A DNA stretch of 64,000 bases from Escherichia coli (GCF_002854065.1 NZ_CP024147.1); one strand, 5' to 3'; shown: positions 23,979-59,711, counted from the first letter of the stretch. Program-made: numbers and translations. The notes: a model not told the origin generated them from the letters alone.

Positions 23979-24262
23979 GATGATATCTCCGTATTACCCC
24001 GCGCCGGGAATGCGCGGCCGCCAATTTTAGTTTAGGTTCCCGGTAAAGATGACATTAAGGAAAACGTGCTGAATCCTCAATAATCATCCGCTTCTGTTTA
24101 TTATCTTTTTTCTATAGATTTCTTAATTAATCAATAAATTGCGTAGTTTTTAAGCATATTAATGATTACGTTGCAGAACTATTGCAATGTCATCAGTTGT
24201 GAACAAAGCACCTGGTCGCGCATACTAGGGGCTATAAATTTATCTTTATCAGAAGCCATCAC

Positions 24263-24625
24263 ATGAAAGAAGTCGAAAAAAACGAAATCAAACGTCTCAG
24301 CGATCGTCTGGACGCCATCCGCCACCAGCAGGCCGATCTGTCGCTGGTTGAAGCCGCAGACAAATATGCCGAGCTGGAAAAAGAGAAAGCCACGCTGGAA
24401 GCAGAAATTGCCCGCCTGCGTGAAGTTCACAGCCAGAAACTGAGTAAAGAAGCACAGAAGCTGATGAAGATGCCGTTTCAGCGCGCAATTACCAAAAAAG
24501 AGCAGGCTGATATGGGCAAGCTGAAGAAAAGTGTTCGCGGACTGGTGGTTGTTCACCCAATGACCGCGCTGGGCCGCGAAATGGGCCTGGAAGAGATGAC
24601 CGGCTTCTCAAAGACCGCGTTTTAA
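24263..24625 (+). CDS. yibL: conserved protein YibL
   Basis: 120-aa [45 protein letters not shown]... Confidence 0.85.
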
Positions 24626-25170
24626 GTCCCCTACTGGTCAATACAACTAAAGTTTCCTCATTTTTATTCGCTCCTGCTGGCACATGCAGGAGCATATTTC
24701 AGATATCGAAATCTATTAACATTATCTTTTCAATTCTTCCCACTCACCTGAATAATTTTAGCAGGTTAAAATCTGAAAATATGTTACGCAATAAAAGTTA
24801 ATATATAATTTACAGCTATAAATATCAGCATAAACATGCTTATATCATAACTATTTATTTATATTTTCCAACTCAAACCGTCCTTGTCATCATAAAACAT
24901 TCACCATATAAATATTATCCTTTGCCTTTTTCTCACCTTATCCCTTTAAAAATTTGACATCGATTGACACCAATCATTAGAATCCGCGCGATTAATATAA
25001 TAATCGGCAACAAACTAAAATATTTCCGCATTGAATAACACATTCACAGTAACGACCAATTAAAAATATTATAAATTTTCACCGTGAATTTATTTAGCTT
25101 AATCATTCATAAAACAAATGATTGTAAAGTAATTTTCAACGCATCAGGATTATGAAAAGGAATTCATCCT

Positions 25171-25854
25171 ATGAATCTAAAAAAGACACTATTAAGCGTG
25201 TTAATGATATCGCCACTCTGCATATTGACAGGGTGTGACTATATTGGAAAAGCAAAACTAATCGACGATCTCTCCAAACAACAAGAGTTGCAAAAAGGTA
25301 AAATAGAGCAACTTGAAAAACAACAAGAACAAGATAAACGCAAGATAGAACTATTTGAAAAACAGCAAACTGCCATCATAAATAGTACCAAAACGCTTGC
25401 TAGTGTGGTGAAGGCGGTTAAAGAAAAGCAGGATGAATTTGTCTTCACAGAATTTAACCCAGCACAAACACAATACTTCATTTTAAATAACGGCTCTGTC
25501 GGTTTGGCGGGTCGGGTGCTGGCTATTGATGCAGTTGAAAACGGCAGCGTTATTCGTATTTCGCTGGTCAACCTATTAAGCGTTCCCGTATCAAATATTG
25601 GTTTTCATGCTACATGGGGCAATGAAAGGCCCACCGATGCCAAAGCTCTGGCGAAGTGGCAACAATTACTTTTCAATACCACCCTGAATTCCACTCTGCA
25701 ATTAATGCCTGGTCAATGGCAAGACATTAATCTGACATTAAAAGGCGTTTCGCCTAATAACCTGAAGTATCTGAAGTTGTCCATCAATATGGACAATCTC
25801 CAGTTCGACACAGTTCAACCTGCTGAAACTCGGCAGCGAAAAAACAAAAAATAA
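25171..25854 (+). CDS. SadB-like inner-membrane lipoprotein (putative trimeric-autotransporter biogenesis helper)
   Basis: 227-aa ORF; signal peptide with lipobox LTGC and Asp at +2 (CD, inner-membrane retention signal); heptad-like coiled coil (QQELQKGKIEQLEKQQEQDKRKIELFEKQQ); AAGGA 8 nt before the ATG; 43 bp upstream of the adhesin gene. Confidence 0.75.
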   Translation: MNLKKTLLSVLMISPLCILTGCDYIGKAKLIDDLSKQQELQKGKIEQLEKQQEQDKRKIELFEKQQTAIINSTKTLASVVKAVKEKQDEFVFTEFNPAQTQYFILNNGSVGLAGRVLAIDAVENGSVIRISLVNLLSVPVSNIGFHATWGNERPTDAKALAKWQQLLFNTTLNSTLQLMPGQWQDINLTLKGVSPNNLKYLKLSINMDNLQFDTVQPAETRQRKNKK

Positions 25855-25897
25855 ATGCAGCTTCTGCGCTTATATCAAGGAATAGAGAACATCAATA

Positions 25898-28800
25898 ATG
25901 AACAAAATATTTAAAGTAATCTGGAATCCGGCGACGGGCAGTTATAGCGTTGCCAGCGAAACGGCGAAGAGCCGTGGTAAGAAATCTGGTCGCAGTAAGC
26001 TGTTAATTTCTGCACTGGTTGCGGGTGGAATGTTGTCGTCGTTTGGGGCAAATGCCAGTGCGACACTTGATGGAGGTTCATCTATTGAAGACCCATCAAT
26101 GGGTACTCGCTGGCTTGCAATCGGTGAGGGCGCAAAAGCAACATCCGCGTTACAAGGTGATGGATATACCGTTGCGATAGGGCTTAATGCACTAGCAGAT
26201 GGTCAGGGTAGTCTTGCATTCGGCTACGATACCCACTCATCGGGTGATCGTTCTATCTCTATTGGCCAATATGCTGAATCCGCAGGAAACAGAACCATTG
26301 CTTTCGGTAGTGGGTCCAAGGCAATAGGAGACTATTCGCTTGCATTAGGAGGAACTACCTATACAGGTGGTGACTACTCCATTGCAGTGGGTAGGGATTC
26401 GAGGGTAGAAGACGATGCTGATTACGCCTCCTCTTTTGGTTACGGCGCCAAGGCAGGCGGGGTCTATAGCATGGCATTCGGTTTCGAAACTAAAGCTAAT
26501 GCCGTTGACAGCCTGGCAATGGGACGACTAGCTACAGCCAGTGCAGCAAACGCTATTGCGATAGGTGCAGAGGCTGAAGCCGCTGAAAATGCGATGGCTA
26601 TTGGCAATAATGCGAAGGCAAAAGGGACTAATAGCATGGCAATGGGGTTCGGAAGCCACGCCGATAAAGTCAATACTATCGCATTAGGAAATGGCAGCCA
26701 GGCTCTGGCAGATAATGCAATCGCCATAGGCCAGGGCAACAAAGCTGATGGCGTGGATGCCATCGCTCTGGGTAATGGTAGCCAGTCGAGAGGCTTAAAC
26801 ACCATTGCCTTAGGCACAGCCAGTAATGCAACTGGTGATAAGAGTCTTGCGCTTGGTAGTGATACCACTGCCAACGGTATTAACTCCGTCGCATTGGGTG
26901 CAGGTTCCACTGCGGATTTAGACAATACCGTCTCTGTCGACAATAGTTCATTAAAACGCAAGATCGTTAATGTGAAAAATGGCGCGATCAAGTCTGACAG
27001 TTACGATGCCATTAATGGTTCACAGCTTTATGCCATTAGCGACTCGGTAGCACAAAGGCTTGGGGGAGGATCATCAGTAGATGTTGATGACGGTACTGTT
27101 ACAGCACCAACCTACAATTTAAAAAATGGTAGCAAAAAGAACGTAGGGGCTGCGCTCACTGTACTTGATGAAAACACCCTGCAATGGGACCAAATCAAAG
27201 GCAAATACAGCGCTGCTCATGGTACTAGTAGCCCAACTGCCAGCGTAATCACCGATGTTGCGGATGGCACGATTTCAGCCTCCAGTAAGGAGGCGGTTAA
27301 CGGCTCCCAACTGCAAGCTACCAATGACGATGTTGAGGCCAACACCACCAATATCACCAACCTGACGGATTCCGTTGGTGACCTTCAGGCTGATGCCCTG
27401 CTCTGGAACGAAACTAAAAAGGCATTCAGTGCAGCTCACGGCCAGGATACCACCAGCAAAATCACCAACGTTAAAGATGGCGACCTGACGGCTGGCAGCA
27501 CTGATGCCGTTAACGGCTCTCAGCTGAAAACCACCAACGATGCTGTGGCGACGAATACCACCAATATCGCCAATAACACTTCCAATATTGCCACTAACAC
27601 CACCAACATCTCTAACCTGACTGAGACGGTGACTAACCTTGGTGAAGATGCGCTGAAATGGGATAAGGACAATTGTGTCTTCACGGCAGCTCATGGCACC
27701 GATGCCACCAGCAAAATCACCAATGTTAAAGATGGCGACCTGACGGCTGGCAGCACTGATGCCGTTAACGGCTCTCAGCTGAAAACTACCAACGATGCTG
27801 TGGCGACGAATACCACCAATATCGCCAATAACACTTCCAATATTGCCACTAACTCCACCAACATCTCTAACCTGACTGAGACGGTGACTAATCTTGGTGA
27901 GGATGCTCTGAAATGGGATAAGGACAATGGTGTCTTCACGGCAGCTCACGGCACCGAGGCCACCAGCAAAATCACCAACGTTAAAGATGCCGACCTGACG
28001 GCTGACAGCACCGATGCCGTTAACGGCTCTCAGCTGAAAACCACCAACGATGCCGTGGCGACGAATACCACCAATATCGCCACTAACACTTCCAATATTG
28101 CCACTAACACCACCAACATCTCTAACCTGACTGAGACGGTGACTAACCTTGGTGAAGATGCGCTGAAATGGGATAAGGACAATGGTGTATTCACGGCAGC
28201 TCACGGCACAGAAGCCACCAGCAAAATCACCAACGTTAAAGATGCCGACCTGACGGCTGGCAGCACTGATGCCGTTAACGGCTCCCAGCTGAAAACCACC
28301 AACGATGCTGTGGCGACGAATACCACCAATATTGCCACTAACACCACCAACATCTCTAACCTGACTGAGACGGTGACTAATCTTGGTGAGGATGCGCTGA
28401 AATGGGATAAGGACAATGGTGTATTCACGGCAGCTCATGGCAACAACACCGCCAGCAAAATCACCAATATCCTGGACGGCACAGTCACTGCAACCAGTTC
28501 CGATGCCATTAACGGCAGCCAGCTTTATGACTTAAGCAGCAATATCGCCACCTACTTCGGCGGCAATGCTTCTGTGAATACTGACGGTGTGTTTACCGGT
28601 CCAACCTACAAAATCGGTGAAACAAATTATTATAACGTCGGCGATGCACTGGCTGCGATTAACTCCTCATTTAGCACGTCTCTCGGCGATGCCCTGCTTT
28701 GGGACGCTTCCGTAGATAAATTTAGTGCCAAACACGGTACTAATGGTGACGCAAGCGTGATCACTGATGTCGCAAACGGGGATGTTTCAAGCACAAGCTC

Positions 28801-31111
28801 TGATGCTGTGAACGGCTCGCAACTCTATACCACCAATAAGTACGTCGTAGATGCGCTGGGTGGTGGTGCCGAAGTCAATGCAGACGGCACCATCACTGCG
28901 CCGACGTACACCATTGCTAATGCTGATTACGATAACGTCGGTGATGCCCTGAACGCCATCGACACCACTCTCGATGATGCTCTGCTCTGGGATACGGACG
29001 CCGGTGAAAATGGTGCATTTAGCGCCGCTCACGGAAAAGATAAAACTGCCAGTGTAATCACTAACGTCGCAAACGGTGCAATTTCCTCCACCAGCAGCGA
29101 TGCTGTTAACGGCTCACAACTCTATACTACCAATCAGTACATAGTCGATGCGCTGGGTGGTGACGCAGAAGTTAACGCTGACGGCACCATCACCGCACCG
29201 ACTTACACCATTGCGAATACCGATTACAACAACGTCGGTGACGCCCTGGATGCGCTTGATGATAACGCCCTGCTGTGGGATGAGACTGCCAATGGCGGTG
29301 CAGGAGCCTACAATGCCAGCCATGACGGTAAAGCCAGCATCATCACTAATGTCGCTGATGGCAGTATTAGTGAGGACAGCACCGATGCAGTGAACGGTTC
29401 TCAGTTGAATGCGACGAATATGATGATTGAGCAGAACAGCCAAATCATCAATCAGCTTGCTGGTAATACCGACGCAACCTATATCGAAGAAAATGGCGCT
29501 GGTATCAACTACGTTCGTACTAACGACAACGGTTTAGCCTTTAACGATGCAAGCGCCTCTGGTGTCGGCGCTACAGCTGTAGGTTATAACGCTGTCGCGT
29601 CTGGTGCCAGCAGCGTAGCCATTGGTCAGAACAGCAGCAGCACCGTTGATACCGGTATTGCGCTGGGTAGCAGCTCCGTTTCCAGCCGTGTAATTGCCAA
29701 AGGTTCTCGTGACACTAGCGTAACGGAAAATGGCGTGGTGATTGGTTATGACACCACTGACGGCGAACTGCTAGGTGCATTGTCAATTGGTGATGACGGT
29801 AAATACCGCCAAATCATCAACGTAGCTGATGGTTCAGAAGCCCATGACGCCGTTACGGTTCGTCAGTTGCAGAACGCTATTGGAGCGGTCGCCACTACGC
29901 CAACCAAGTACTTTCACGCCAACTCAACGGCAGAAGACTCACTGGCCGTTGGTGAAGACTCGCTGGCAATGGGTGCGAAAACTGTCGTTAATGGTAATGC
30001 AGGTATTGGTATCGGTTTGAACACTCTGGTTCTGGCTGATGCGATCAACGGCATTGCTATCGGCAGTAACGCACGCGCAAACCATGCAAACAGTATTGCA
30101 ATGGGTAACGGTTCTCAGACCACCCGTGGTGCACAGACTGGCTACACCGCCTACAACATGGACGCACCGCAGAACTCTGTAGGTGAGTTTTCTGTTGGTA
30201 GTGAAGACGGTCAACGTCAGATCACCAACGTCGCAGCTGGTTCAGCGGATACCGATGCGGTTAACGTGGGTCAGTTGAAAGTCACTGATGAGCGCGTAGC
30301 GCAAAATACCCAGAGCATTACTAACCTGAACAATCAGGTCACTAATCTGGATACTCGCGTTACTAATATCGAAAACGGTATTGGCGATATCGTGACCACC
30401 GGTAGCACCAAGTACTTCAAGACCAACACCGATGGCGTAGATGCCAACGCCCAGGGTAAAGATAGCGTTGCGATTGGTTCTGGTTCCATTGCTGCCGCTG
30501 ACAACAGCGTCGCACTGGGTACAGGCTCCGTGGCCAACGAAGAAAACACGATCTCTGTGGGTTCTTCTACCAACCAGCGCCGTATCACCAACGTAGCTGC
30601 CGGTGTTAATGCCACCGATGCGGTTAACGTGTCGCAGCTGAAATCTTCTGAAGCAGGCGGCGTTCGCTACGACACCAAAGCTGATGGCTCTATCGACTAC
30701 AGCAACATCACTCTTGGTGGTGGCAACGGAGGTACGACTCGCATCAGCAACGTTTCCGCAGGTGTGAACAACAACGACGCGGTGAACTACGCGCAGTTGA
30801 AGCAAAGCGTGCAGGAAACAAAGCAATACACCGATCAGCGCATGGTTGAGATGGATAACAAACTGTCTAAAACTGAAAGCAAGTTGAGCGGGGGTATCGC
30901 TTCTGCAATGGCAATGACCGGTCTGCCGCAGGCTTACACTCCAGGTGCCAGCATGGCTTCTATTGGTGGCGGTACTTACAACGGTGAATCGGCAGTTGCT
31001 TTAGGTGTATCGATGGTGAGCGCCAATGGTCGTTGGGTCTACAAATTACAAGGTAGTACCAATAGCCAGGGTGAATACTCCGCCGCACTCGGTGCCGGTA
31101 TTCAGTGGTAA
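25898..31111 (+). CDS. upaG: trimeric autotransporter adhesin (YadA-like; UpaG/EhaG/SadA family)
   Basis: 1737-aa ORF; extended signal peptide [27 protein letters not shown]...; repetitive head/neck/stalk motifs; C-terminal YadA-type anchor (...[15 protein letters not shown]...[38 protein letters not shown]). Position between yibL and lldP fits what I recall for upaG/ehaG/sadA. Confidence 0.85.
27392..28390 (+). repeat. in-frame tandem repeats inside the adhesin gene (255-bp / 85-aa unit)
   Basis: Units start at 27392, 27647, 27902 and 28157 (the last 21 bp shorter); a degenerate fifth starts at 28391. Units are more than 95% identical by eye ([29 protein letters not shown]...TNLGE). Confidence 0.85.
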
Positions 31112-31152
31112 TGATCCATTAAGTTAGTGTGACTAAGGGCAAACGCCAAATT

Positions 31153-31235
31153 GCCTGATGCGCTACGCTTATCAGGCCTACAGGGTGATTCTGCACATTC
31201 CTATAGGCCGAGTAAGGTGTTCACGCCGCATCTGG
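31153..31235. repeat. REP/BIME extragenic palindromes
   Basis: gcctgatgcgctacgcttatcaggcctac ... ggccgagtaaggtgttcacgccgcatctggc just after the adhesin stop. Confidence 0.7.
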
Positions 31236-31264
31236 CAAGATAAGGCGCACCGGGTCAACAATCT

Positions 31265-31300
31265 AAGGGCAATTCTCTGATGAGGATTGCCCTTTTCTTT
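31265..31300 (+). terminator. rho-independent terminator after the adhesin operon
   Basis: aagggcaat-tctctgatgagg-attgccctt followed by ttctttacc. Confidence 0.6.
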
Positions 31301-31537
31301 ACCAGACATCTCCCCCCACAAGAATTGGCCCTACCAATTCTTCGCTTATCTGACCTCTGGTTCACAATTCCCCAATTAAAACTCACATCAATGTTGCCAA
31401 TACATAACATTTAGTTAACCATTCATTGTCATTATCCCTACACAACACAATTGGCAGTGCCACTTTTACACAACGTGTGACAAGGAGATGAGCAACAGAC
31501 TCATTACACGATGTGCGTGGACTCCAGGAGACCTGCA

Positions 31538-33193
31538 ATGAATCTCTGGCAACAAAACTACGATCCCGCCGGGAATATCTGGCTTTCCAGCCTGATAGCA
31601 TCGCTTCCCATCCTGTTTTTCTTCTTTGCGCTGATTAAGCTCAAACTGAAAGGATACATCGCCGCCTCATGGACAGTGGCAATCGCCCTTGCCGTGGCTT
31701 TGCTGTTCTATAAAATGCCGGTCGCTAACGCGCTGGCCTCGGTGATTTATGGCTTCTTCTACGGGTTGTGGCCCATCGCGTGGATCATTATTGCAGCGGT
31801 GTTCGTCTATAAGATCTCGGTGAAAACCGGGCAGTTTGACATCATTCGCTCGTCTATTCTTTCGATAACCCCTGACCAGCGTCTGCAAATGCTGATCGTC
31901 GGTTTCTGTTTCGGCGCGTTCCTCGAAGGAGCTGCAGGCTTTGGCGCACCGGTAGCAATTACCGCCGCATTGCTGGTCGGTCTGGGCTTTAAACCACTGT
32001 ACGCCGCCGGGCTGTGCCTGATTGTTAACACCGCGCCAGTGGCATTTGGCGCGATGGGCATTCCAATCCTGGTTGCCGGACAGGTAACAGGTATCGACAG
32101 CTTTGAGATTGGCCAGATGGTGGGGCGGCAGCTACCGTTTATGACCATTATCGTGCTGTTCTGGATCATGGCGATTATGGACGGCTGGCGCGGTATCAAA
32201 GAGACGTGGCCTGCGGTCGTGGTTGCGGGCGGCTCGTTTGCCATCGCTCAGTACCTTAGCTCTAACTTCATTGGGCCGGAGCTGCCGGATATTATCTCTT
32301 CGCTGGTATCACTGCTCTGCCTGACGCTGTTCCTCAAACGCTGGCAGCCAGTGCGCGTATTCCGTTTTGGTGATTTGGGGGCGTCACAGGTTGATATGAC
32401 GCTGGCCCACACCGGTTACACTGCGGGTCAGGTGTTACGTGCCTGGACACCGTTCCTGTTCCTGACCGCTACCGTAACACTGTGGAGTATCCCGCCGTTT
32501 AAAGCCCTGTTCGCATCGGGTGGCGCGCTGTATGAGTGGGTGATCAATATTCCGGTGCCGTACCTCGATAAACTGGTTGCCCGTATGCCGCCAGTAGTCA
32601 GCGAGGCTACAGCCTATGCCGCCGTGTTTAAGTTCGACTGGTTCTCTGCCACCGGTACCGCCATTCTGTTTGCTGCGTTGCTCTCGGTTGTCTGGCTGAA
32701 GATGAAACCGTCTGACGCTATCAGCACCTTCGGCAGCACGCTGAAAGAACTGGCTCTGCCCATCTACTCCATCGGTATGGTGCTGGCATTCGCCTTTATT
32801 TCGAACTATTCCGGACTGTCATCAACACTGGCGCTGGCACTGGCGCACACCGGTCATGCATTCACCTTCTTCTCGCCGTTCCTCGGCTGGCTGGGGGTAT
32901 TCCTGACCGGGTCGGATACCTCATCTAACGCCCTGTTCGCCGCGCTGCAAGCCACCGCAGCACAACAAATTGGCGTCTCTGATCTGTTGCTGGTTGCCGC
33001 CAATACCACCGGTGGCGTCACCGGTAAGATGATCTCCCCGCAATCTATCGCTATCGCCTGTGCGGCGGTAGGCCTGGTGGGCAAAGAGTCTGATTTGTTC
33101 CGCTTTACTGTCAAACACAGCCTGATCTTCACCTGTATGGTGGGCGTGATCACCACGCTTCAGGCCTATGTCTTAACGTGGATGATTCCTTAA
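31538..33193 (+). CDS. lldP: L-lactate permease
   Basis: Start set at ATG 31538 ([19 protein letters not shown]...), giving 551 aa; polytopic membrane protein. Confidence 0.95.
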
Positions 33194-51113: not shown

Positions 51114-52322
51114 ATGACCTCAACATTATTTTTCTCTCTCGAGAAAAAAAACTGGATAGCGTACTGGAACAGAGCTCTCGTATTCTTATTCATTACCACC
51201 TATTTTTTGGGTGAGATTACAAGGTATAAACATCTTATTGTTATTCTTATGACAATAACGACAATCGTCTATCTCTGCAAACGGCCAAAACACTATCTCT
51301 CACTATTTAAAACATTTCTTTTTGGTAGTGTTGCCATATTAACTATTGCTGCATTGCTGTCACTTCTTCAATCCCCTGATGCAGGTGCTAGCATGAAGGA
51401 AATTTTCAAAGCTATTATTGAGAATACTTTACTATGCACAATAGCAATACCGGTCATATTGAGAGACGAGAAAAGAGAAGATGTCGAAAAAATCGTTTTC
51501 TTCTCATTTATTAGTGCGTTGGGCTTACGCTGTTTTTCTGAATTGATTACCTATTATAAGGACTATCAACAAGGGATAATGCCATTCGCAGATTATAGAC
51601 ACCGTAGCATTTCTGACTCGATGGTCTTTTTATTCCCTGCATTGTTAAATCTCTGGCTTATCAAATCAGCAAAATACCGCATTTCTTTTGTGGTTCTAAG
51701 CTTTATTTTTATTTTTCTGATATTAGGAACTTTATCCAGAGGGGCCTGGCTTTCCGTGTTAGTCATTGGATTAATATGGATTCTGATGTTTAAACAATGG
51801 AAGTTACTATTAGTAGGAGTAATGGTTTCCATCATTGCATTGTCGGTTATTTTCACACATAAGGAGATGACCGCAAAGCTAACGTATAAACTTCAACAAA
51901 CTAATAGTTCTTATCGCTATGCAAATGGTACTCAAGGCAGCGCACTCGATCTAATATTAGAAAATCCTGTTATTGGTTATGGTTACGGTAACGTTGCATA
52001 TAAAGATGTCTATAATAAACGTGTCGTTGATTATCCAGAATGGACCTTTAGACAATCAATAGGGCCACATAATTTTGCGCTATTCATCTGGTTTGGCACT
52101 GGTTTATTAGGACTGGTAAGTCTTATGATGCTATACTGTGCAATATTGAAAGAGTGTATAAAAAATGGCGTCCAGAATAAATACCGCTCACCATATAATG
52201 CATATTATATAATCTTACTATCTTTTATAGGTTATTTTGTTATCCGTGGAAACGTAGAACAAATTGAACCAAATTTATTAGGCGTTTACGCCGGCTTATT
52301 ATTAGCGATGAAAAACAAGTAA
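51114..52322 (+). CDS. waaL: O-antigen ligase
   Basis: 402-aa AT-rich polytopic membrane ORF at the waaL position after waaC. Confidence 0.85.
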   Translation: MTSTLFFSLEKKNWIAYWNRALVFLFITTYFLGEITRYKHLIVILMTITTIVYLCKRPKHYLSLFKTFLFGSVAILTIAALLSLLQSPDAGASMKEIFKAIIENTLLCTIAIPVILRDEKREDVEKIVFFSFISALGLRCFSELITYYKDYQQGIMPFADYRHRSISDSMVFLFPALLNLWLIKSAKYRISFVVLSFIFIFLILGTLSRGAWLSVLVIGLIWILMFKQWKLLLVGVMVSIIALSVIFTHKEMTAKLTYKLQQTNSSYRYANGTQGSALDLILENPVIGYGYGNVAYKDVYNKRVVDYPEWTFRQSIGPHNFALFIWFGTGLLGLVSLMMLYCAILKECIKNGVQNKYRSPYNAYYIILLSFIGYFVIRGNVEQIEPNLLGVYAGLLLAMKNK

Positions 52323-52323
52323 A

Positions 52324-52356
52324 AAATAAAAAAGGCTGCATAATGCGGCCTTTTTA
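52324..52356. terminator. bidirectional rho-independent terminator between convergent waaL and outer-core genes
   Basis: aaaaaaggctgcat-aatgcggcctttttatttatt: GC stem flanked by A- and T-tracts. Confidence 0.6.
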
Positions 52357-52357
52357 T

Positions 52358-53500
52358 TTATTCAAACCAATTATGAATAACCTCTTCGAATCTTTGAGTT
52401 ACGCCATCCCAACTGTAGTGATCAAACACAAAATCCTGACCTTGCTTTGCAACTGCTGTTAATTCAGGATTCGCTAACGTTTTTAAAATATCGCTGCTTA
52501 TGGAGTCTGCAGTCATAGGTTCTTTTAAATGGAATCCCGTAGTATTTTCTTTGACAAATTCCGTCATCCCCCCACGCGTACTCACTAAAACAGGCTTACC
52601 AGCACCCATAGCTTCAATTGCCACCATGCAAAATGGTTCCTGGAACTGGGAAGGAATGACGACTAAATCTGCCAGTGGGTAATAACAATGCATCTTTTCA
52701 GGCGGTATGCTTCCTAACATAATGCAACGATCCTTCAAACGTTTTGCAATTTCCCTGACATTGCGTTGATATGCACCTTTGTCACTTTTACTCATTTCTG
52801 TATAATCACCAATCACAACTAATTTTAAATTTTTGTGAGCAGCGGCCAATTTTTCGAATGATTGCATCAACAGCAATATGCCTTTGTCAGGGACGATACG
52901 CCCAGCATAAAAAATAATTTTCTCTTCAGGGGAGATATTAAGTTCGCTTCTAGTGATCGGCTGAAAAGTAGATTGATAGGTTTCTAAATCAATTCCATTT
53001 GGTACAATCTCAATATCTGCATTTGCTAAATAAGATTGGTAATACTTTTTCAAGTATAAACTAGGCACTATCATTTTAACATTTTGCTCAAGCAATTTTG
53101 GTTCAAATGCATTATGCATATGTATAACCACTCTTGCCTGAGGAGCTCGCTTACGAATTTGAGTGTATAGCTTCATACTATTATGTACTACAATAACACT
53201 TTCTTTCGTTATAGGAAAATCATGTGCAATATTCAATATTCTCTGTGAATATGGAAGAGGATCAAGTCTTGTCCATTTTTGAAATAACCGCTTATATATG
53301 CGACTGAATCCAACCCTATGAATACTACAATTATCATTAACAAAGGTGTAATTTGAGTATCCTGGATTCTTGATACAAACAATACGATTTGGGAAATTGG
53401 TACGCTGAGCAACCTGATACATCCACGTTTCAACAGCGGCCGCTCCGCGAGGAGGAATTGAAAAAATAGGAGTAACTGTAAATATTATTTTATCAACCAT
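52358..53500 (-). CDS. waaD: family 1 glycosyltransferase of the LPS outer core (R3-type WaaD-like)
   Basis: 380-aa ORF with GT1 (GT-B) C-terminal motifs; last gene of the waaQ operon. The symbol is from the R3 gene order as I recall it. Confidence 0.6.
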   Translation of the reverse strand: MVDKIIFTVTPIFSIPPRGAAAVETWMYQVAQRTNFPNRIVCIKNPGYSNYTFVNDNCSIHRVGFSRIYKRLFQKWTRLDPLPYSQRILNIAHDFPITKESVIVVHNSMKLYTQIRKRAPQARVVIHMHNAFEPKLLEQNVKMIVPSLYLKKYYQSYLANADIEIVPNGIDLETYQSTFQPITRSELNISPEEKIIFYAGRIVPDKGILLLMQSFEKLAAAHKNLKLVVIGDYTEMSKSDKGAYQRNVREIAKRLKDRCIMLGSIPPEKMHCYYPLADLVVIPSQFQEPFCMVAIEAMGAGKPVLVSTRGGMTEFVKENTTGFHLKEPMTADSISSDILKTLANPELTAVAKQGQDFVFDHYSWDGVTQRFEEVIHNWFE

Positions 53501-53508
53501 CTCGAATG

Positions 53509-54522
53509 TTAACCTTTCATAAAATTATATTTAATTGCTGTAAAAAAACCATCGAGAAATTTTTTCTGGTAAAGCAAGTGTTTATATTCTTCTTTGTACT
53601 CATGTTTTTTAACAGCTTTTTTATAAGGTATATTTCTCCATGGTGATATATTATAAATATTACGAAAATAATCTGCAGATGCGTAGTTCGCCCAATCATG
53701 CCATGGCTTTGTTACACCAGTATAATGTATGAAGACAGTTTCATCATTAATAAACCGGGTGTAATATTCACTATTTTTTTCTTCAAATTCTGACTTTATA
53801 GTATAAATACAGTTATATTTTCTCGGTAATATTTTAGCATGATGTAGAAACATTAAGTTTAAAATATCTTGATCCGGATATTTTAATTTTTTGATAATTG
53901 ACTCATCTGATAATAGTTCAAAGAATTTCTCCGTTAGTCTTTGTTTTAACCATTCCCGTAAATTAATATACATTACACCAGAGTTAAAATAGCTACCGTT
54001 AAAATCCTCATTACCTAAACGCTCAGCGCTTTTACTTTGCATAGCATCTACATCAATTACCACAGCCCCATATTCATCTTTAAACTCTAATGCTATTAAC
54101 TCGTTCAATGAACCCTTACAGACGATATCAGCATCAAGATATAATAATGAATCCAATCGCGCAGAAAAATAGTCAAATGAAAGCAAACGATAATAAATAG
54201 ATACTGGCCAGATATTTGATTGAGGTAGCGTCTTCAATGGCTCAGAATCAATATGATATAATTTAATTACTGTTTGATACTTCGTTGCTAATTGTGATAA
54301 TAATTCAATATAATCTTTGTCTAAGTAATCAGCGATTATGTGAAAGGTAAATTTGTTTTGTTTATTATTTTCAAGAATTGAAGCAATTGAAATCGCAGCC
54401 CCAACCTGGTAGTTCTCATCAATACCCCATGAGACATTAAACGTTTCCCGTTCATCAAGTTTAACGGGGCGCTTGTCCAGTTCAATTATATCTTTAAATT
54501 GAGTAAGATGTTTAAAATCCAA
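53509..54522 (-). CDS. waaJ: family 8 glycosyltransferase of the LPS outer core (R3-type WaaJ-like)
   Basis: 337-aa AT-rich ORF; GT8 motifs (DxD region …YLDADIVC…). Confidence 0.6.
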   Translation of the reverse strand: MDFKHLTQFKDIIELDKRPVKLDERETFNVSWGIDENYQVGAAISIASILENNKQNKFTFHIIADYLDKDYIELLSQLATKYQTVIKLYHIDSEPLKTLPQSNIWPVSIYYRLLSFDYFSARLDSLLYLDADIVCKGSLNELIALEFKDEYGAVVIDVDAMQSKSAERLGNEDFNGSYFNSGVMYINLREWLKQRLTEKFFELLSDESIIKKLKYPDQDILNLMFLHHAKILPRKYNCIYTIKSEFEEKNSEYYTRFINDETVFIHYTGVTKPWHDWANYASADYFRNIYNISPWRNIPYKKAVKKHEYKEEYKHLLYQKKFLDGFFTAIKYNFMKG

Positions 54523-54546
54523 TTTAATTACCCTTCATCATAATCA

Positions 54547-55254
54547 TTATTTGCTCTTCAAACCTAGTTTGACTTTTACATCCCTGATTGCTTTTTTAAT
54601 TTTCTTTTTGAATATAAGATATGTATAGCCAAAGTCTTTCAATTCATTTTTTATATTATAGTGCCGTTCAAGATCAATGCGATCTTTTGCTTTTAAAACT
54701 GCGGTTGTTTTTTTACCTGAAAGGTCAATTAGTCTTAAACCTTTTTCGGATACTATAAAATTTCCTTTATGAGGATCGCCAGACACCATTCCATGCTGAT
54801 GCAACTCTTTTATCGATTCTGATAATTGATCCTTCAGTTCTTCAGAAATTTCCAAATACTCATTTAACCCGATACCTTCAATATACTCAATGAGCATAAT
54901 ATAATAATGCGCGAAATTTAATGTTTTACGTTCAGCAAGCAAAAAATAGTCATTAATTGATTGAATGCCTTCACCACGTACCCGATCGGTTTGATAAATT
55001 AAATTTTCATAATAATCTTTTTTTATGCAAGATTTTAAGAAACGTTCGATCATTTTATGCTTTGGCGCATAAACTTTAAGTACAAGAGGTCCACGAGCAG
55101 TGTCAATAAGAATAACTTTAGTATCATCAATAGAACGAAAAACTTTTAATGTTTTAACCCTGCAAGTTAAAAAATCATTCAGAACTTGCTCATAAAAGGG
55201 ATCATTATCTTTTATGAAAACTTTCAACCCATTTATCGTTTTATTATATATCAT
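54547..55254 (-). CDS. waaY: LPS core heptose II kinase
   Basis: 235-aa ORF; kinase-like motifs (…HQHGMVSGDPHKGNFIV…). Confidence 0.8.
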   Translation of the reverse strand: MIYNKTINGLKVFIKDNDPFYEQVLNDFLTCRVKTLKVFRSIDDTKVILIDTARGPLVLKVYAPKHKMIERFLKSCIKKDYYENLIYQTDRVRGEGIQSINDYFLLAERKTLNFAHYYIMLIEYIEGIGLNEYLEISEELKDQLSESIKELHQHGMVSGDPHKGNFIVSEKGLRLIDLSGKKTTAVLKAKDRIDLERHYNIKNELKDFGYTYLIFKKKIKKAIRDVKVKLGLKSK

Positions 55255-55279
55255 ATTGAATTATTTTAACCTTAAATCT

Positions 55280-56287
55280 TTAAAAGCATTTTTCTTTATA
55301 ATACTTTAAATAATTAAAAATGCCCGCCATATAATGCTTTTGTTTAAATTTATGTTTTGCACAATACCGATACTGATTGCTATTTACAGGTTTAAGTAAA
55401 TCTTCTTTACACCACGGAGAAGATGCTTTGGCGATCAAAAAACTACGTGACACCGGATAGTCAGCCCATTCATGCCAGGGTTTTGTAGGTCCCACATAGT
55501 GTATAAACACAGTGTCATCATTGACTGGATTATCAACTTTGTCTTTTAATTCATAGTTAATACTATATCGGGTATTATATTTCCCAGAAATAAACTTCAC
55601 TTTACCATTCAATAATACATTCAGTACATCTTGATCAAGGTGGGTGATTTTACTTACCCAATCTGGATCACGCAACATTTCAATAGCTTTTGACGAAATG
55701 TTATTAAGATTCCACTCATCAATATTTATCAGTAAAAAACCAGCATTGAAATATCCAGAAGCTAATTGTGGTGTAGTTAATACCGAGGCTCGATTCTGCC
55801 ACCATTCAACATCTCTTTCAGCTACAACTGCGGCAATTTCATTAGTAGAGAATTGATAATCTAAGAGTTCTTTAATACTACCCTTGCAAGCAATATCTGC
55901 ATCAAGATATAGTATTTTTTCATGTTTATTATAGAAATAGTCTGCAATTATAAATCGAAAATATGTAGCGTAAGTCCAGTTTTTCGTGCTTGGTAATGAC
56001 TTCAGCTTATCACAATTGATAACATAAATATTAATTCTTGAATTATATTGTTTTGCTAAATCGGAAAAATATAACTTGTCTTTATCACTGATATAATCTG
56101 TGAAAACATGAAATTCACAAGAGATTTCTCTATTGTTTAATAGAATAGATGCGATGGCTACACCACATCCAAAAAGAAAATTTCTGTCAATACCAAATGC
56201 TATATCAAGAGTATTTTTAGATCTTATATTTTGATAATGAAAATTATACTCAAAAAGGATGATGTCACTATCATTGAGTTGAGACAT
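55280..56287 (-). CDS. waaI: family 8 glycosyltransferase of the LPS outer core (R3-type WaaI-like)
   Basis: 335-aa AT-rich ORF paralogous to the ORF at 53509-54522 (…YLDADIACKG…). Confidence 0.6.
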   Translation of the reverse strand: MSQLNDSDIILFEYNFHYQNIRSKNTLDIAFGIDRNFLFGCGVAIASILLNNREISCEFHVFTDYISDKDKLYFSDLAKQYNSRINIYVINCDKLKSLPSTKNWTYATYFRFIIADYFYNKHEKILYLDADIACKGSIKELLDYQFSTNEIAAVVAERDVEWWQNRASVLTTPQLASGYFNAGFLLINIDEWNLNNISSKAIEMLRDPDWVSKITHLDQDVLNVLLNGKVKFISGKYNTRYSINYELKDKVDNPVNDDTVFIHYVGPTKPWHEWADYPVSRSFLIAKASSPWCKEDLLKPVNSNQYRYCAKHKFKQKHYMAGIFNYLKYYKEKCF

Positions 56288-59348: not shown

Positions 59349-59360
59349 CACGCTACCGCC
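59349..59360 (-). promoter_or_regulatory. ops element (RfaH recruitment site) in the waaQ operon leader
   Basis: Plus strand CACGCTACCGCC is the reverse complement of GGCGGTAGCGTG, 50 nt upstream of the waaQ start. Confidence 0.75.
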
Positions 59361-59711
59361 CCAGGCTCAACAGCTACCTGAATACTGATACCGCACTGAT
59401 ATTGACGCGCTAGTGTATCACTTCTTTCGCGGCAATCCGACCCGAATGATTTTTAAGCACACTGTTGATTTTCAATAAAGAAATCAATCAAATATAATCA
59501 TTAGCAACCATATTCTTTCACTGTTGCTCTGCGATTTCTTCCTGCACGTACAGCAGAAATCAATGAATCGCATAAAAATACAAAAAAAGTATAGATGTTC
59601 AGCAAGAATTGGCGGGTAAATTGCTATTTAAGTCAAAAACGGGAAAAGTAATGGTAAAGCCACAGCTAAATACATAGAATCCCCAGCACATCCATAAGTC
59701 AGCTATTTACT

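Follow-up and report, generated by a model that had tools for sequence, protein, structure and literature searches.

Between yibL and lldP, the Escherichia coli chromosome analysed here carries an AT-rich leader, a small lipoprotein gene and a giant adhesin gene, and the question is whether these form a known secretion unit resident in the species or a foreign island acquired by this strain. Within the window (the whole 64-kb stretch of DNA, 64,000 nucleotides), both open reading frames reported in the earlier note are present and are separated by the 43 bp that it gave; the order is yibL, lipoprotein gene, adhesin gene, lldP (Table 1). The flanks are mtl and lld genes, as it had said (mtlR, yibT and yibL upstream; lldP, lldR and lldD downstream), and are 98-99% identical to E. 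coli. This location between yibL and lldP is that of the positional orthologs UpaG and EhaG, and RefSeq calls the genes at the same position ehaG (O157) and upaG (CFT073). The sadB gene was found in 4149 of 5426 complete E. coli genomes (76%), always chromosomal and in a single copy. We are highly confident that the locus is an E. coli counterpart of sadBA, an operon encoding a type Vc secretion unit; the proposed likeness to Salmonella sadB-sadA and to the UpaG/EhaG locus is supported by the match to the SadB structure 4C47, the YadA anchor, the position and the RefSeq names. The two-gene unit (a SadB-type lipoprotein and a trimeric adhesin of the UpaG/EhaG/SadA type) is a known enterobacterial system, intact here, and the allele is an ordinary, previously deposited E. 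coli version. Grin et al. (PMC3953254) already describe the mtl/lld position, the operon hypothesis, the inner-membrane location set by Asp at +2 and the K-12 deletion.

Table 1. Features of the sadB-adhesin locus (window coordinates, or residues of the encoded protein)
Feature	Position	Strand	Evidence
Whole cassette: leader, lipoprotein gene, spacer, adhesin gene, first REP copy	24627..31177	+	K-12 comparison
AT-rich non-coding leader, GC 0.297	24626..25170	+	composition
Hairpin GCTCCTGC-TGGCACAT-GCAGGAGC, 45 nt past yibL stop	24670..24693	+	sequence read, leader alignment
Candidate operon promoter: TTGACA, 18 nt, TAGAAT (11/12 matches)	24954..24983	+	promoter scan, conservation
sadB ortholog, predicted inner-membrane lipoprotein, 227 aa	25171..25854	+	PDB match, fold search, RefSeq names
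Lipoprotein signal peptide, aa 1-21	25171-25233	+	sequence
Lipid-modified Cys22 (predicted)	25234-25236	+	lipobox
Lipoprotein Asp23, predicted retention signal	directly after Cys22	+	sequence
Lipoprotein coiled coil, nine heptads	about aa 31-93	+	heptad positions, SadB alignment
Lipoprotein beta-sandwich domain	about aa 94-215	+	fold search, model
43-nt spacer ATGCAGCTTCTGCGCTTATATCAAGGAATAGAGAACATCAATA with adhesin ribosome-binding region	25855..25897	+	alignment
Trimeric autotransporter adhesin gene, 1737 aa	25898..31111	+	Pfam, PDB matches, motif map, comparison with UpaG, EhaG and the O145 allele
Adhesin ESPR signal peptide, aa 1-53	25898-26056	+	PF13018
Adhesin N-terminal YadA-like head	about aa 54-345	+	Pfam, motif map
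Rare variant segment of N-terminal head	26049..26506	+	genome comparison
Adhesin neck	aa 346-377	+	motif map
Adhesin long stalk of DALL, HANS, neck and coiled-coil modules	about aa 380-1175	+	motif map
Site of 63-nt (21-aa, three-heptad) in-frame deletion relative to CUWW06 and 100416	27339..27355	+	allele alignment
Tandem array, 4.2 copies of 255-nt (85-aa) stalk module	27424..28467	+	Tandem Repeats Finder, protein motif map
Three smaller adhesin head-neck units	about aa 1230-1585	+	motif map
Adhesin C-terminal coiled coil	between head-neck units and anchor	+	
Adhesin YadA anchor, aa 1677-1737, last residue Trp	30926-31108	+	PF03895
REP-type palindromic pair, inverted	31153..31236 (31153-31181, 31203-31236)	.	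sequence read
Intrinsic-terminator-like hairpin (13 pairs, loop of 4), then TTCTTT	31265..31300	+	terminator scan

Judged from its sequence, the lipoprotein is the ortholog of Salmonella SadB. A phmmer search of the PDB, which bears directly on the similarity that the earlier note had assumed, returned 4C47 (Salmonella SadB) as a match along the entire mature protein (E=1.6e-72; residues 23-227 against 3-207, ungapped). Foldseek, run on the predicted model, placed 4C47 first (55% identity), YajI (2JWY) next and SPOP MATH domains lower, a ranking that agrees with Grin et al. (PMC3953254); the AlphaFold model itself, of moderate confidence (pLDDT 67.5), has a helix at residues 22-85 followed by eight strands. 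The family assignment rests on the PDB match and the RefSeq names, because no Pfam or NCBIfam model matches the lipoprotein: scans with Pfam-A and NCBIfam gave nothing up to E 10, the copies used seemingly lacking a model for this family, and RefSeq labels identical lipoproteins either “DUF3251 domain-containing protein” or “SadB/YajI family lipoprotein.” The N-terminus reads MNLKKTLLSVLMISPLCILTGC-D, with cleavage predicted between MNLKKTLLSVLMISPLCILTG and the modifiable Cys22; the lipobox L-T-G-C and the Asp at +2 are thus as first described, and in an alignment of 11 homologs G21, C22, and D23 do not vary and every invariant residue of the SadB family is retained. Asp23 would place the protein in the inner membrane, as was demonstrated for SadB (PMC3953254). 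What had been called a heptad-like coiled coil consists of nine heptads (a positions 31, 38, ... 87; d positions 34, 41, ... 90) that align without gaps to the coiled coil of SadB. As is characteristic of the family, the gene sits between the mtl and lld operons and immediately precedes a gene for a trimeric autotransporter, and in Salmonella SadB raises the surface display and the integrity of SadA (PMC3953254).

The large reading frame was searched for a YadA-type anchor, whose lack, like a lack of SadB similarity, would by the earlier note have refuted its reading; the reading withstood both checks, for the anchor was found together with ESPR, YadA_head, and YadA_stalk domains: PF03895 (YadA_anchor) matches at E=5.6e-19, with 68.4 bits against a cut-off of 22.7, and PF13018 (ESPR) matches residues 1-48 at E=4.6e-16. 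An A-N-A/S site after residue 53 agrees with the 53-residue signal peptide of UpaG. Pfam recognises YadA_head in nine stretches and YadA_stalk in 14; the motif map contains nine neck, seven DALL, and eight HANS-like motifs, and each 255-nt module of the stalk array contains nested 21-nt (heptad) repeats. In the PDB, fragments of SadA match best (2YO0, E=3.6e-137); fragments of BpaC and AtaA and the anchor structures of Hia and YadA match as well. No NCBIfam model reaches its cut-off on the adhesin, and the PGAP name for its closest alleles is only “YadA-like family protein.”

On sequence comparison, this adhesin is a positional ortholog of upaG, ehaG, and sadA but belongs to a third allele class, being neither UpaG nor EhaG in the strict sense. 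UpaG of CFT073 (1778 aa, WP_001033292.1) has the same chromosomal position and operon layout, with a spacer that differs by one base; both proteins have a 53-aa signal peptide and a YadA anchor with a terminal Trp, but the adhesins are only 70% identical with 121 gap positions, the lipoproteins 83% identical, and the head segments unrelated at the DNA level. In related alleles, the leader can be aligned over 97% of its length, at just about 79-83% identity. EhaG of O157:H7 also has the same position, and its 43-nt spacer is identical; identity reaches 74% across stalk and anchor (aa 129-1737), whereas the head is different, the O157 adhesin is shorter (1579 aa in TR01), the O157 lipoprotein is just 73% identical, and the O157 leader about 51%. 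In other strains, both UpaG and EhaG function as adhesins (PMC7247748). Salmonella sadB-sadA (STM3690-STM3691) occupies the same slot, from mtlR/yibL to lldP. SadB, about 55% identical to the lipoprotein here, shares with it the lipobox Cys followed by Asp and a nine-heptad coiled coil with a beta-sandwich, gapless to 4C47; SadA has the same domain types as the adhesin but is listed at 147 kDa against 1737 aa here, and the number and order of stalk modules differ. A looser parallel is TpgA-AtaA of Acinetobacter, in which a small periplasm-facing helper, likewise encoded beside a giant trimeric adhesin, improves its display. TpgA, however, has BamE-like and OmpA-like peptidoglycan-binding domains, neither of which is found in the lipoprotein here, and binds the barrel; the lipoprotein, by analogy with SadB, would be an inner-membrane coiled-coil trimer, and the two are not homologous.

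The leader contains no conserved open reading frame (just ORFs of 20-36 aa) and no Rfam match, and apart from a few blocks it is just 51-70% identical among E. coli alleles. The best-conserved of these blocks across the divergent alleles, partly retained in Pseudocitrobacter and Salmonella, is the candidate promoter, which was also the top site of the promoter scan and puts the predicted transcription start near 24990, leaving a 5′ UTR of ~180 nt. Nearer to yibL, a hairpin is kept in most E. coli alleles within the divergent leader; it has no T-run and was not called by the terminator scan, and may mark the end of the yibL transcript. Between the two genes, the scan found no terminator-like or promoter-like site on the plus strand. 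Because of this and the conservation of the promoter block, we infer co-transcription of both genes from one promoter. The only terminator-like hairpin on the plus strand (31265-31294) is followed by a T-run and is the likely end of the operon transcript. The shared terminator of the earlier note therefore stands in so far as the genes have none between them and one after the adhesin gene; but the same hairpin is also present in K-12, placed after yibL, where neither gene exists. Between the adhesin stop and this hairpin lies a pair of palindromes that fit the REP consensus; the query hit a median of 14 sites in each E. coli genome, in keeping with a dispersed repeat.

The spacer is unusually well conserved: its length is fixed and its sequence near-constant across Escherichia, Salmonella, and Pseudocitrobacter, with a mean pairwise difference of 0.056 against 0.19-0.30 at adjacent third codon positions; divergence is three to ten times higher at neighbouring synonymous sites and in the leader. 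As 43 conserved positions are more than a simple ribosome-binding site would need, we raise, as a rather doubtful suggestion, that the spacer and the first adhesin codons (about 25855-25915) form a cis-acting site of post-transcriptional control. A small RNA or an RNA-binding protein could act there (CAAGGA in the spacer is similar to a CsrA site). RNA folding gave no significant structure in the spacer. If the suggestion is true, the site could set the ratio of adhesin to lipoprotein or tie translation of the adhesin to a signal.

The exact 1737-aa adhesin is already public (AUJ98062.1). The closest complete genomes, CUWW06 (NZ_CP182139.1) and 100416 (NZ_CM128593.1), share 99.9-100% DNA identity over >17 kb including flanks and have identical lipoproteins; their adhesins are 1758 aa, with three extra heptads (63 nt). 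The in-frame deletion is the only difference between the adhesin here and theirs, and one of the two 17-nt direct repeats, CCAACACCACCAATATC, that bracket the missing segment remains at its site. In contrast to the common locus, the first 803 nt of the adhesin gene (25898-26700) are covered to at least 80% at 99% identity or more in just 2 of 5426 complete E. coli genomes, the next-best full-length matches being about 75% identical, and the variant head segment within it fails to align with the alleles of O145, O157, or Escherichia sp. E1V33. Identity to Escherichia sp. E1V33 rises from about 92% in the flanks to 95-99% in the leader and sadB and 97-99.7% in parts of the adhesin gene; because the cassette is closer to this lineage than its flanks are, alleles appear to have been exchanged by recombination.

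The earlier note described the leader and both genes as markedly AT-richer than the flanks and took this as consistent with a horizontal origin. The AT-richness holds only in part: the leader (GC 0.297) is among the three lowest-GC 500-bp stretches of the window, and the lipoprotein gene (0.401; GC3 0.404) is also AT-richer than mtl (0.515) and lld (0.553), but the adhesin gene, which makes up 78% of the cassette, has a genome-like GC of 0.508 against 0.496 for the whole window. A recently acquired island would also fit the sharp absence of the cassette from K-12 MG1655, in which 10 bp (AACACAGTAT) stand in place of 24627-31177 (in a blastn comparison with the yibL-lldP region of K-12, the match to the window stops at 24626 and restarts at 31178, so that the deletion ends inside the first REP copy), and its closeness to another Escherichia lineage. 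The same genes, however, occur at the same site in identical order and with the 43-nt spacer in Salmonella enterica and Pseudocitrobacter; the lipoprotein gene is present once, on the chromosome, in three-quarters of the complete E. coli genomes; no integrase, tRNA, or IS lies at the cassette borders; Grin et al. (PMC3953254) interpret K-12 as having lost the sadBA operon by deletion; and the exchange that we see is allele replacement at a resident locus. We therefore regard a foreign island as very unlikely, and the horizontal origin of the locus is better put differently: as read from these comparisons, it is old, ancestral and syntenic in Escherichia, Salmonella, and Pseudocitrobacter, with alleles swapped by homologous recombination. 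As for the H-NS silencing proposed with it, the leader is not enriched in the H-NS nucleation motif; silencing may apply here by analogy, from the AT content and the UpaG literature, UpaG being repressed by H-NS according to the statement in PMC5012682 that cites Totsika 2012.

That reported repression of UpaG would also suit a silent or decaying relic, with genes intact by chance and never used in this strain, as would the frequent damage elsewhere: the loss in K-12, replacement of the locus by IS91 in APEC E18055, and stops in the lipoprotein gene of MS8345 (internal) and O157:H7 TR01 (TAG at codon 3), each with an intact adhesin gene after it. We think this quite unlikely, since the repeat-rich 5214-nt reading frame is still open, the sole length change seen being in frame with the heptad register kept, the promoter block and spacer are conserved well past the neutral level, the lipoprotein has lost no invariant family residue, and UpaG and EhaG function in other strains (PMC7247748). 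MS8345 and TR01, which keep the adhesin with a broken lipoprotein gene, could instead suggest that the lipoprotein is a mere neighbour with a job of its own, like its paralog YajI, and so could the different GC of the two genes (0.401 and 0.508) and the fact that the adhesin can be made without it. Yet the pair and its fixed spacer are retained across three genera, both genes were lost together in K-12, the distant sadB homologs of Citrobacter youngae and Enterobacter wuhouensis also have an ESPR-type gene start downstream of them, a published genome survey found SadB homologs beside trimeric autotransporters in Enterobacterales only, and SadB was shown to increase SadA display and integrity (PMC3953254); an unrelated job is thus extremely unlikely.

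The sadBA reading suggests the following working model. A sigma-70 promoter at about 24954-24983 would give rise to a single transcript that covers both genes and ends at the hairpin at 31265-31294. As was shown for its Salmonella homolog SadB, the lipoprotein would be exported by Sec, lipidated on Cys22, retained in the inner membrane by Asp23, and assembled into a trimer in which the nine-heptad coiled coil holds three beta-sandwich domains in the periplasm. The adhesin would cross the inner membrane by its extended ESPR signal peptide; as is usual for the family, three chains with four strands each would form a 12-strand outer-membrane barrel assembled by Bam, and the passenger, threaded outward, would fold into an extended trimeric fibre made up of heads, necks, and coiled coils. 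The lipoprotein would give more and sounder displayed adhesin, probably by keeping the three chains in register, an effect shown only for SadB and SadA. SadB is a helper, not a requirement. In strain AD202, a K-12 derivative, a published truncated UpaG assembles quickly without lipoprotein supplied. The fibre would mediate aggregation, biofilm formation, and binding of matrix proteins, as reported for UpaG and EhaG, with laboratory expression probably low through H-NS; stalk length would change between strains by in-frame gain or loss of repeat units, and whole cassette segments would be exchanged among Escherichia lineages by recombination.

The operon, the structure of the lipoprotein, the architecture of the fibre, its adhesive function, and the K-12 deletion are already published, and with the exact adhesin protein in GenBank the finding adds little to them. 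Its value is a clean annotation, in which the RefSeq entries “DUF3251 domain-containing protein” and “YadA-like family protein” become a sadB ortholog and a third upaG/ehaG allele class. The conserved promoter block in a fast-diverging leader offers a precise spot for mapping regulation, and the 43-nt spacer, being conserved, may be a control site of interest to those who study these adhesins. The mosaic exchange of head and stalk segments among Escherichia lineages and the frequent damage to the lipoprotein gene are relevant to the use of UpaG/EhaG in vaccines, and bear on how important the helper is in nature.

The two open reading frames described in the earlier note are present on the same strand and separated by 43 bp, the first encoding a lipoprotein of 227 aa and the second an adhesin of 1737 aa (coordinates of all features are collected in the table below). 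The observation is real and its interpretation is right in its principal points; the system was known before, and the allele has already been deposited, the exact adhesin as AUJ98062.1 and the lipoprotein as AUJ98061.1 (consecutive accessions). The pair lies between mtlA, mtlD, mtlR, yibT, and yibL upstream and lldP, lldR, and lldD downstream; these flanks share 98-99% identity with E. coli genomes, and across more than 17 kb the entire region matches that of E. coli CUWW06 and 100416 at 99.9-100% identity. In RefSeq, the adhesin gene of this locus is called upaG in CFT073 and ehaG in O157.

Features of the operon, its surroundings and the window, with GC content
Feature	Position	Strand	GC	Remark
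Leader	24626-25170		0.297	non-coding
Second conserved leader block	24769-24779			(A/T)TCTGAAAAT
Candidate promoter	24954-24983			TTGACA-18-TAGAAT; best promoter-like site of the region
Lipoprotein gene	25171-25854	plus	0.401
Spacer	25855-25897			43 nt
Adhesin gene	25898-31111	plus	0.508
Head variant	26049-26506
255-nt tandem array	27424-28467
REP-type palindrome pair	31153-31236			between adhesin stop and terminator
Terminator	31265-31300			hairpin of 13 pairs plus T-run; 3′ of the two REP-type elements
ESPR	adhesin aa 1-48			Pfam
YadA_head	adhesin, 9 stretches			Pfam
YadA_stalk	adhesin, 14 stretches			Pfam
YadA_anchor	adhesin aa 1677-1737			Pfam
mtl genes			0.515
lld genes			0.553
Whole window			0.496
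ES036 (CssrF) small RNA family	214-256	minus		Rfam, 39.7 bits (gathering score 37.6)
JUMPstart	59349-59387	minus		Rfam RF01707, 55 bits

The first gene product carries a standard lipobox L-T-G-C in its N-terminus (MNLKKTLLSVLMISPLCILTGC-D), with Cys22 followed by Asp23; G21, C22, and D23 are invariant across 11 lipoprotein homologs that are 65-86% identical. Its proposed similarity to SadB was borne out: among all PDB sequences the only match is Salmonella SadB (4C47, E=1.6e-72), with residues 23-227 aligning without gaps to 4C47 residues 3-207. The assignment to the SadB family rests on this PDB match, since no family was matched in the Pfam-A and NCBIfam copies used, even at E up to 10; in RefSeq the identical protein appears under two names, “SadB/YajI family lipoprotein” and “DUF3251 domain-containing protein.” The heptad a and d positions between residues 31 and 90 are hydrophobic or Gln, giving nine heptads, the same count as in the Salmonella SadB crystal. 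An AlphaFold model built with 11 homologs (moderate confidence, pLDDT 67.5) predicts a long helix at residues 22-85, followed by a strand-rich domain. Searched against the PDB with Foldseek, the model matched SadB first (55% identity) and E. coli YajI (2JWY) second, with MATH domains lower; the likeness of SadB to YajI and MATH domains was likewise described by Grin et al. (PMC3953254).

The second gene encodes a trimeric autotransporter adhesin with the expected YadA-type anchor, identified by Pfam at the very C-terminus. Its closest solved relatives are the SadA fragments 2YO0 (E=3.6e-137) and 2YO3 (E=4.8e-89), followed by pieces of BpaC, AtaA, and Hia. According to the motif map, the signal peptide is cut after A-N-A at residue 53; the N-terminal head consists of 14-residue repeats up to about aa 345 and is followed by a neck; the stalk then contains about nine DALL/HANS/neck/coiled-coil modules; and the C-terminal part comprises three short head-neck units, a final coiled coil, and the anchor with its Trp end. 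Four near-identical 85-aa stalk modules are encoded by the tandem array. The adhesin shares 70% identity with UpaG (CFT073), 74% with EhaG (O157; over aa 129-1737), and 81% with an O145 allele. Relative to CUWW06 and 100416, the window allele has lost 63 nt by deletion between two copies of a 17-nt repeat (CCAACACCACCAATATC); exactly three heptads (TNTSNIA-type) are removed, so the coiled-coil register is kept. An antisense ORF within the tandem repeats (27275-28438, 387 aa) was rejected as a by-product of repeat composition. In one stalk repeat, residue 593 (27674-27676) is Cys, where the sister repeats and 100416 have Gly (DKDNCVF vs. DKDNGVF); in a trimer, this would bring three Cys next to one another.

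We also checked the non-coding parts of the operon. Eight E. coli leader alleles were aligned; against a background identity of just 51-70%, the most conserved stretch is the promoter block, which is partly retained in Pseudocitrobacter and Salmonella. This footprint is the strongest argument for the candidate promoter, from which we infer a putative transcription start. The second short conserved block stands about 180 nt 5′ of the candidate promoter in the otherwise divergent leader, and is retained even in Salmonella and Pseudocitrobacter. Small leader ORFs (only 20-36 aa), whose sequences are unconserved between alleles, were rejected as genes. No terminator-like or promoter-like site was found by the scan on the plus strand of 25171-25897, and folding of the predicted 5′ UTR (24990-25200) gave a z-score of -0.07, with no evidence of a stable structure. 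UpaG has been reported to be repressed by H-NS (PMC5012682, citing Totsika 2012). The nucleation motif TCGATAAATT (at most two mismatches) occurs 82 times in the window, with 72 expected, and only two of these matches lie in the leader or at the beginning of the lipoprotein gene; because the motif is not enriched, only the AT content favors H-NS control of this locus.

The length of the spacer does not vary across Escherichia, Salmonella, and Pseudocitrobacter, and its sequence identity is 93-100% (compared in the window and the comparison loci L002, L012, L013, L015, L017-L020, and L023). Its mean pairwise difference is 0.056, as opposed to 0.19-0.30 at adjacent third codon positions, and it varies 3-5 times less than neighboring synonymous sites. 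It contains CAAGGA, and may simply be a translation start region that is well tuned, or else a regulator binding site. RNA folding of 25835-25940 predicted no significant structure (z-score +0.62). At gathering thresholds, the Rfam scan of the whole window matched only JUMPstart and ES036, with no match within 24000-31600, including the spacer.

Elsewhere in the window, a 4-kb block (52000-56000) has the lowest GC content (0.33); from the order of genes in CFT073, its probable location is the LPS core (waa/rfa) cluster.

The earlier note had read the AT-richness of the leader and both genes as consistent with horizontal origin. The compositional claim holds for the leader and the lipoprotein gene, but not for the adhesin gene, whose GC content is close to that of the window. 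Origin as a recent island does not fit the distribution: the same gene order and 43-nt spacer are found in Salmonella enterica and two Pseudocitrobacter species, and the lipoprotein gene occurs in 4149 of 5426 complete E. coli genomes (always chromosomal, median one copy per genome). Given this prevalence and the synteny beyond Escherichia, the locus is old and resident. The match to K-12 stops at 24626 and resumes at 31178, with 10 unrelated bases (AACACAGTAT) in between, so the cassette absent from K-12 spans 24627-31177 (6551 bp); Grin et al. (PMC3953254) interpreted the K-12 arrangement as the result of a deletion. The 10-bp junction sequence was looked for at the borders of the window's cassette and not found. 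On its right side, the K-12 deletion ends inside the first REP-type palindrome, at 31177/31178; the terminator hairpin is part of the shared backbone, and stands downstream of yibL in K-12.

Within this old locus, identity of the lipoprotein gene to the window allele is mostly 60-90%, far below the core-gene level. Citrobacter youngae and Enterobacter wuhouensis carry more remote homologs, with 51-52% identity, which are followed by a different spacer and then an ESPR-type gene start. Comparison of 24600-31200 with Escherichia sp. E1V33 gave about 92% identity for the flanking mtl/lld genes, 95-99% for the leader and lipoprotein gene, and 97-99.7% for long parts of the adhesin gene, with the head segment and repeat array unalignable. 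The cassette is closer to that of this separate Escherichia lineage (95-99.7%) than the flanks are, a mosaic pattern indicating that adhesin segments have been exchanged by recombination. The head variant of the window was found in only 2 of 5426 complete genomes. A peptide-pattern scan of genome contigs gave 10 loci, missing Salmonella owing to the patterns chosen. Three of these loci (L019, L021, and L022) are enterobacterial contigs with the operon that are filed in unrelated public MAGs labeled Oscillospiraceae, Collinsella, and Bacillota, most likely by binning error.

Some natural lipoprotein alleles contain stops ahead of an intact adhesin gene. In E. coli O157:H7 TR01 (L002 2874-2890), the lipoprotein gene reads ATG AAC TAG, with a stop at codon 3, and RefSeq places the start at an ATT five codons later; this EhaG-carrying strain may make little or none of the helper. 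In MS8345 (L010 1437-2120) the annotation marks the gene as a pseudogene interrupted by an internal stop, and in APEC E18055 (L011 3358-5620) most of the adhesin gene, together with the lipoprotein gene, is replaced by an IS91 transposase.

The lipoprotein helper is not essential in general: assembly of a truncated UpaG takes place in a strain to which no such gene is supplied. All functional statements for the window operon are drawn by orthology, and the proposed mechanism comes from the published sadBA system (PMC3953254): the lipoprotein would form a trimer at the inner membrane, facing the periplasm, and would raise the amount and integrity of the trimeric adhesin displayed on the surface.
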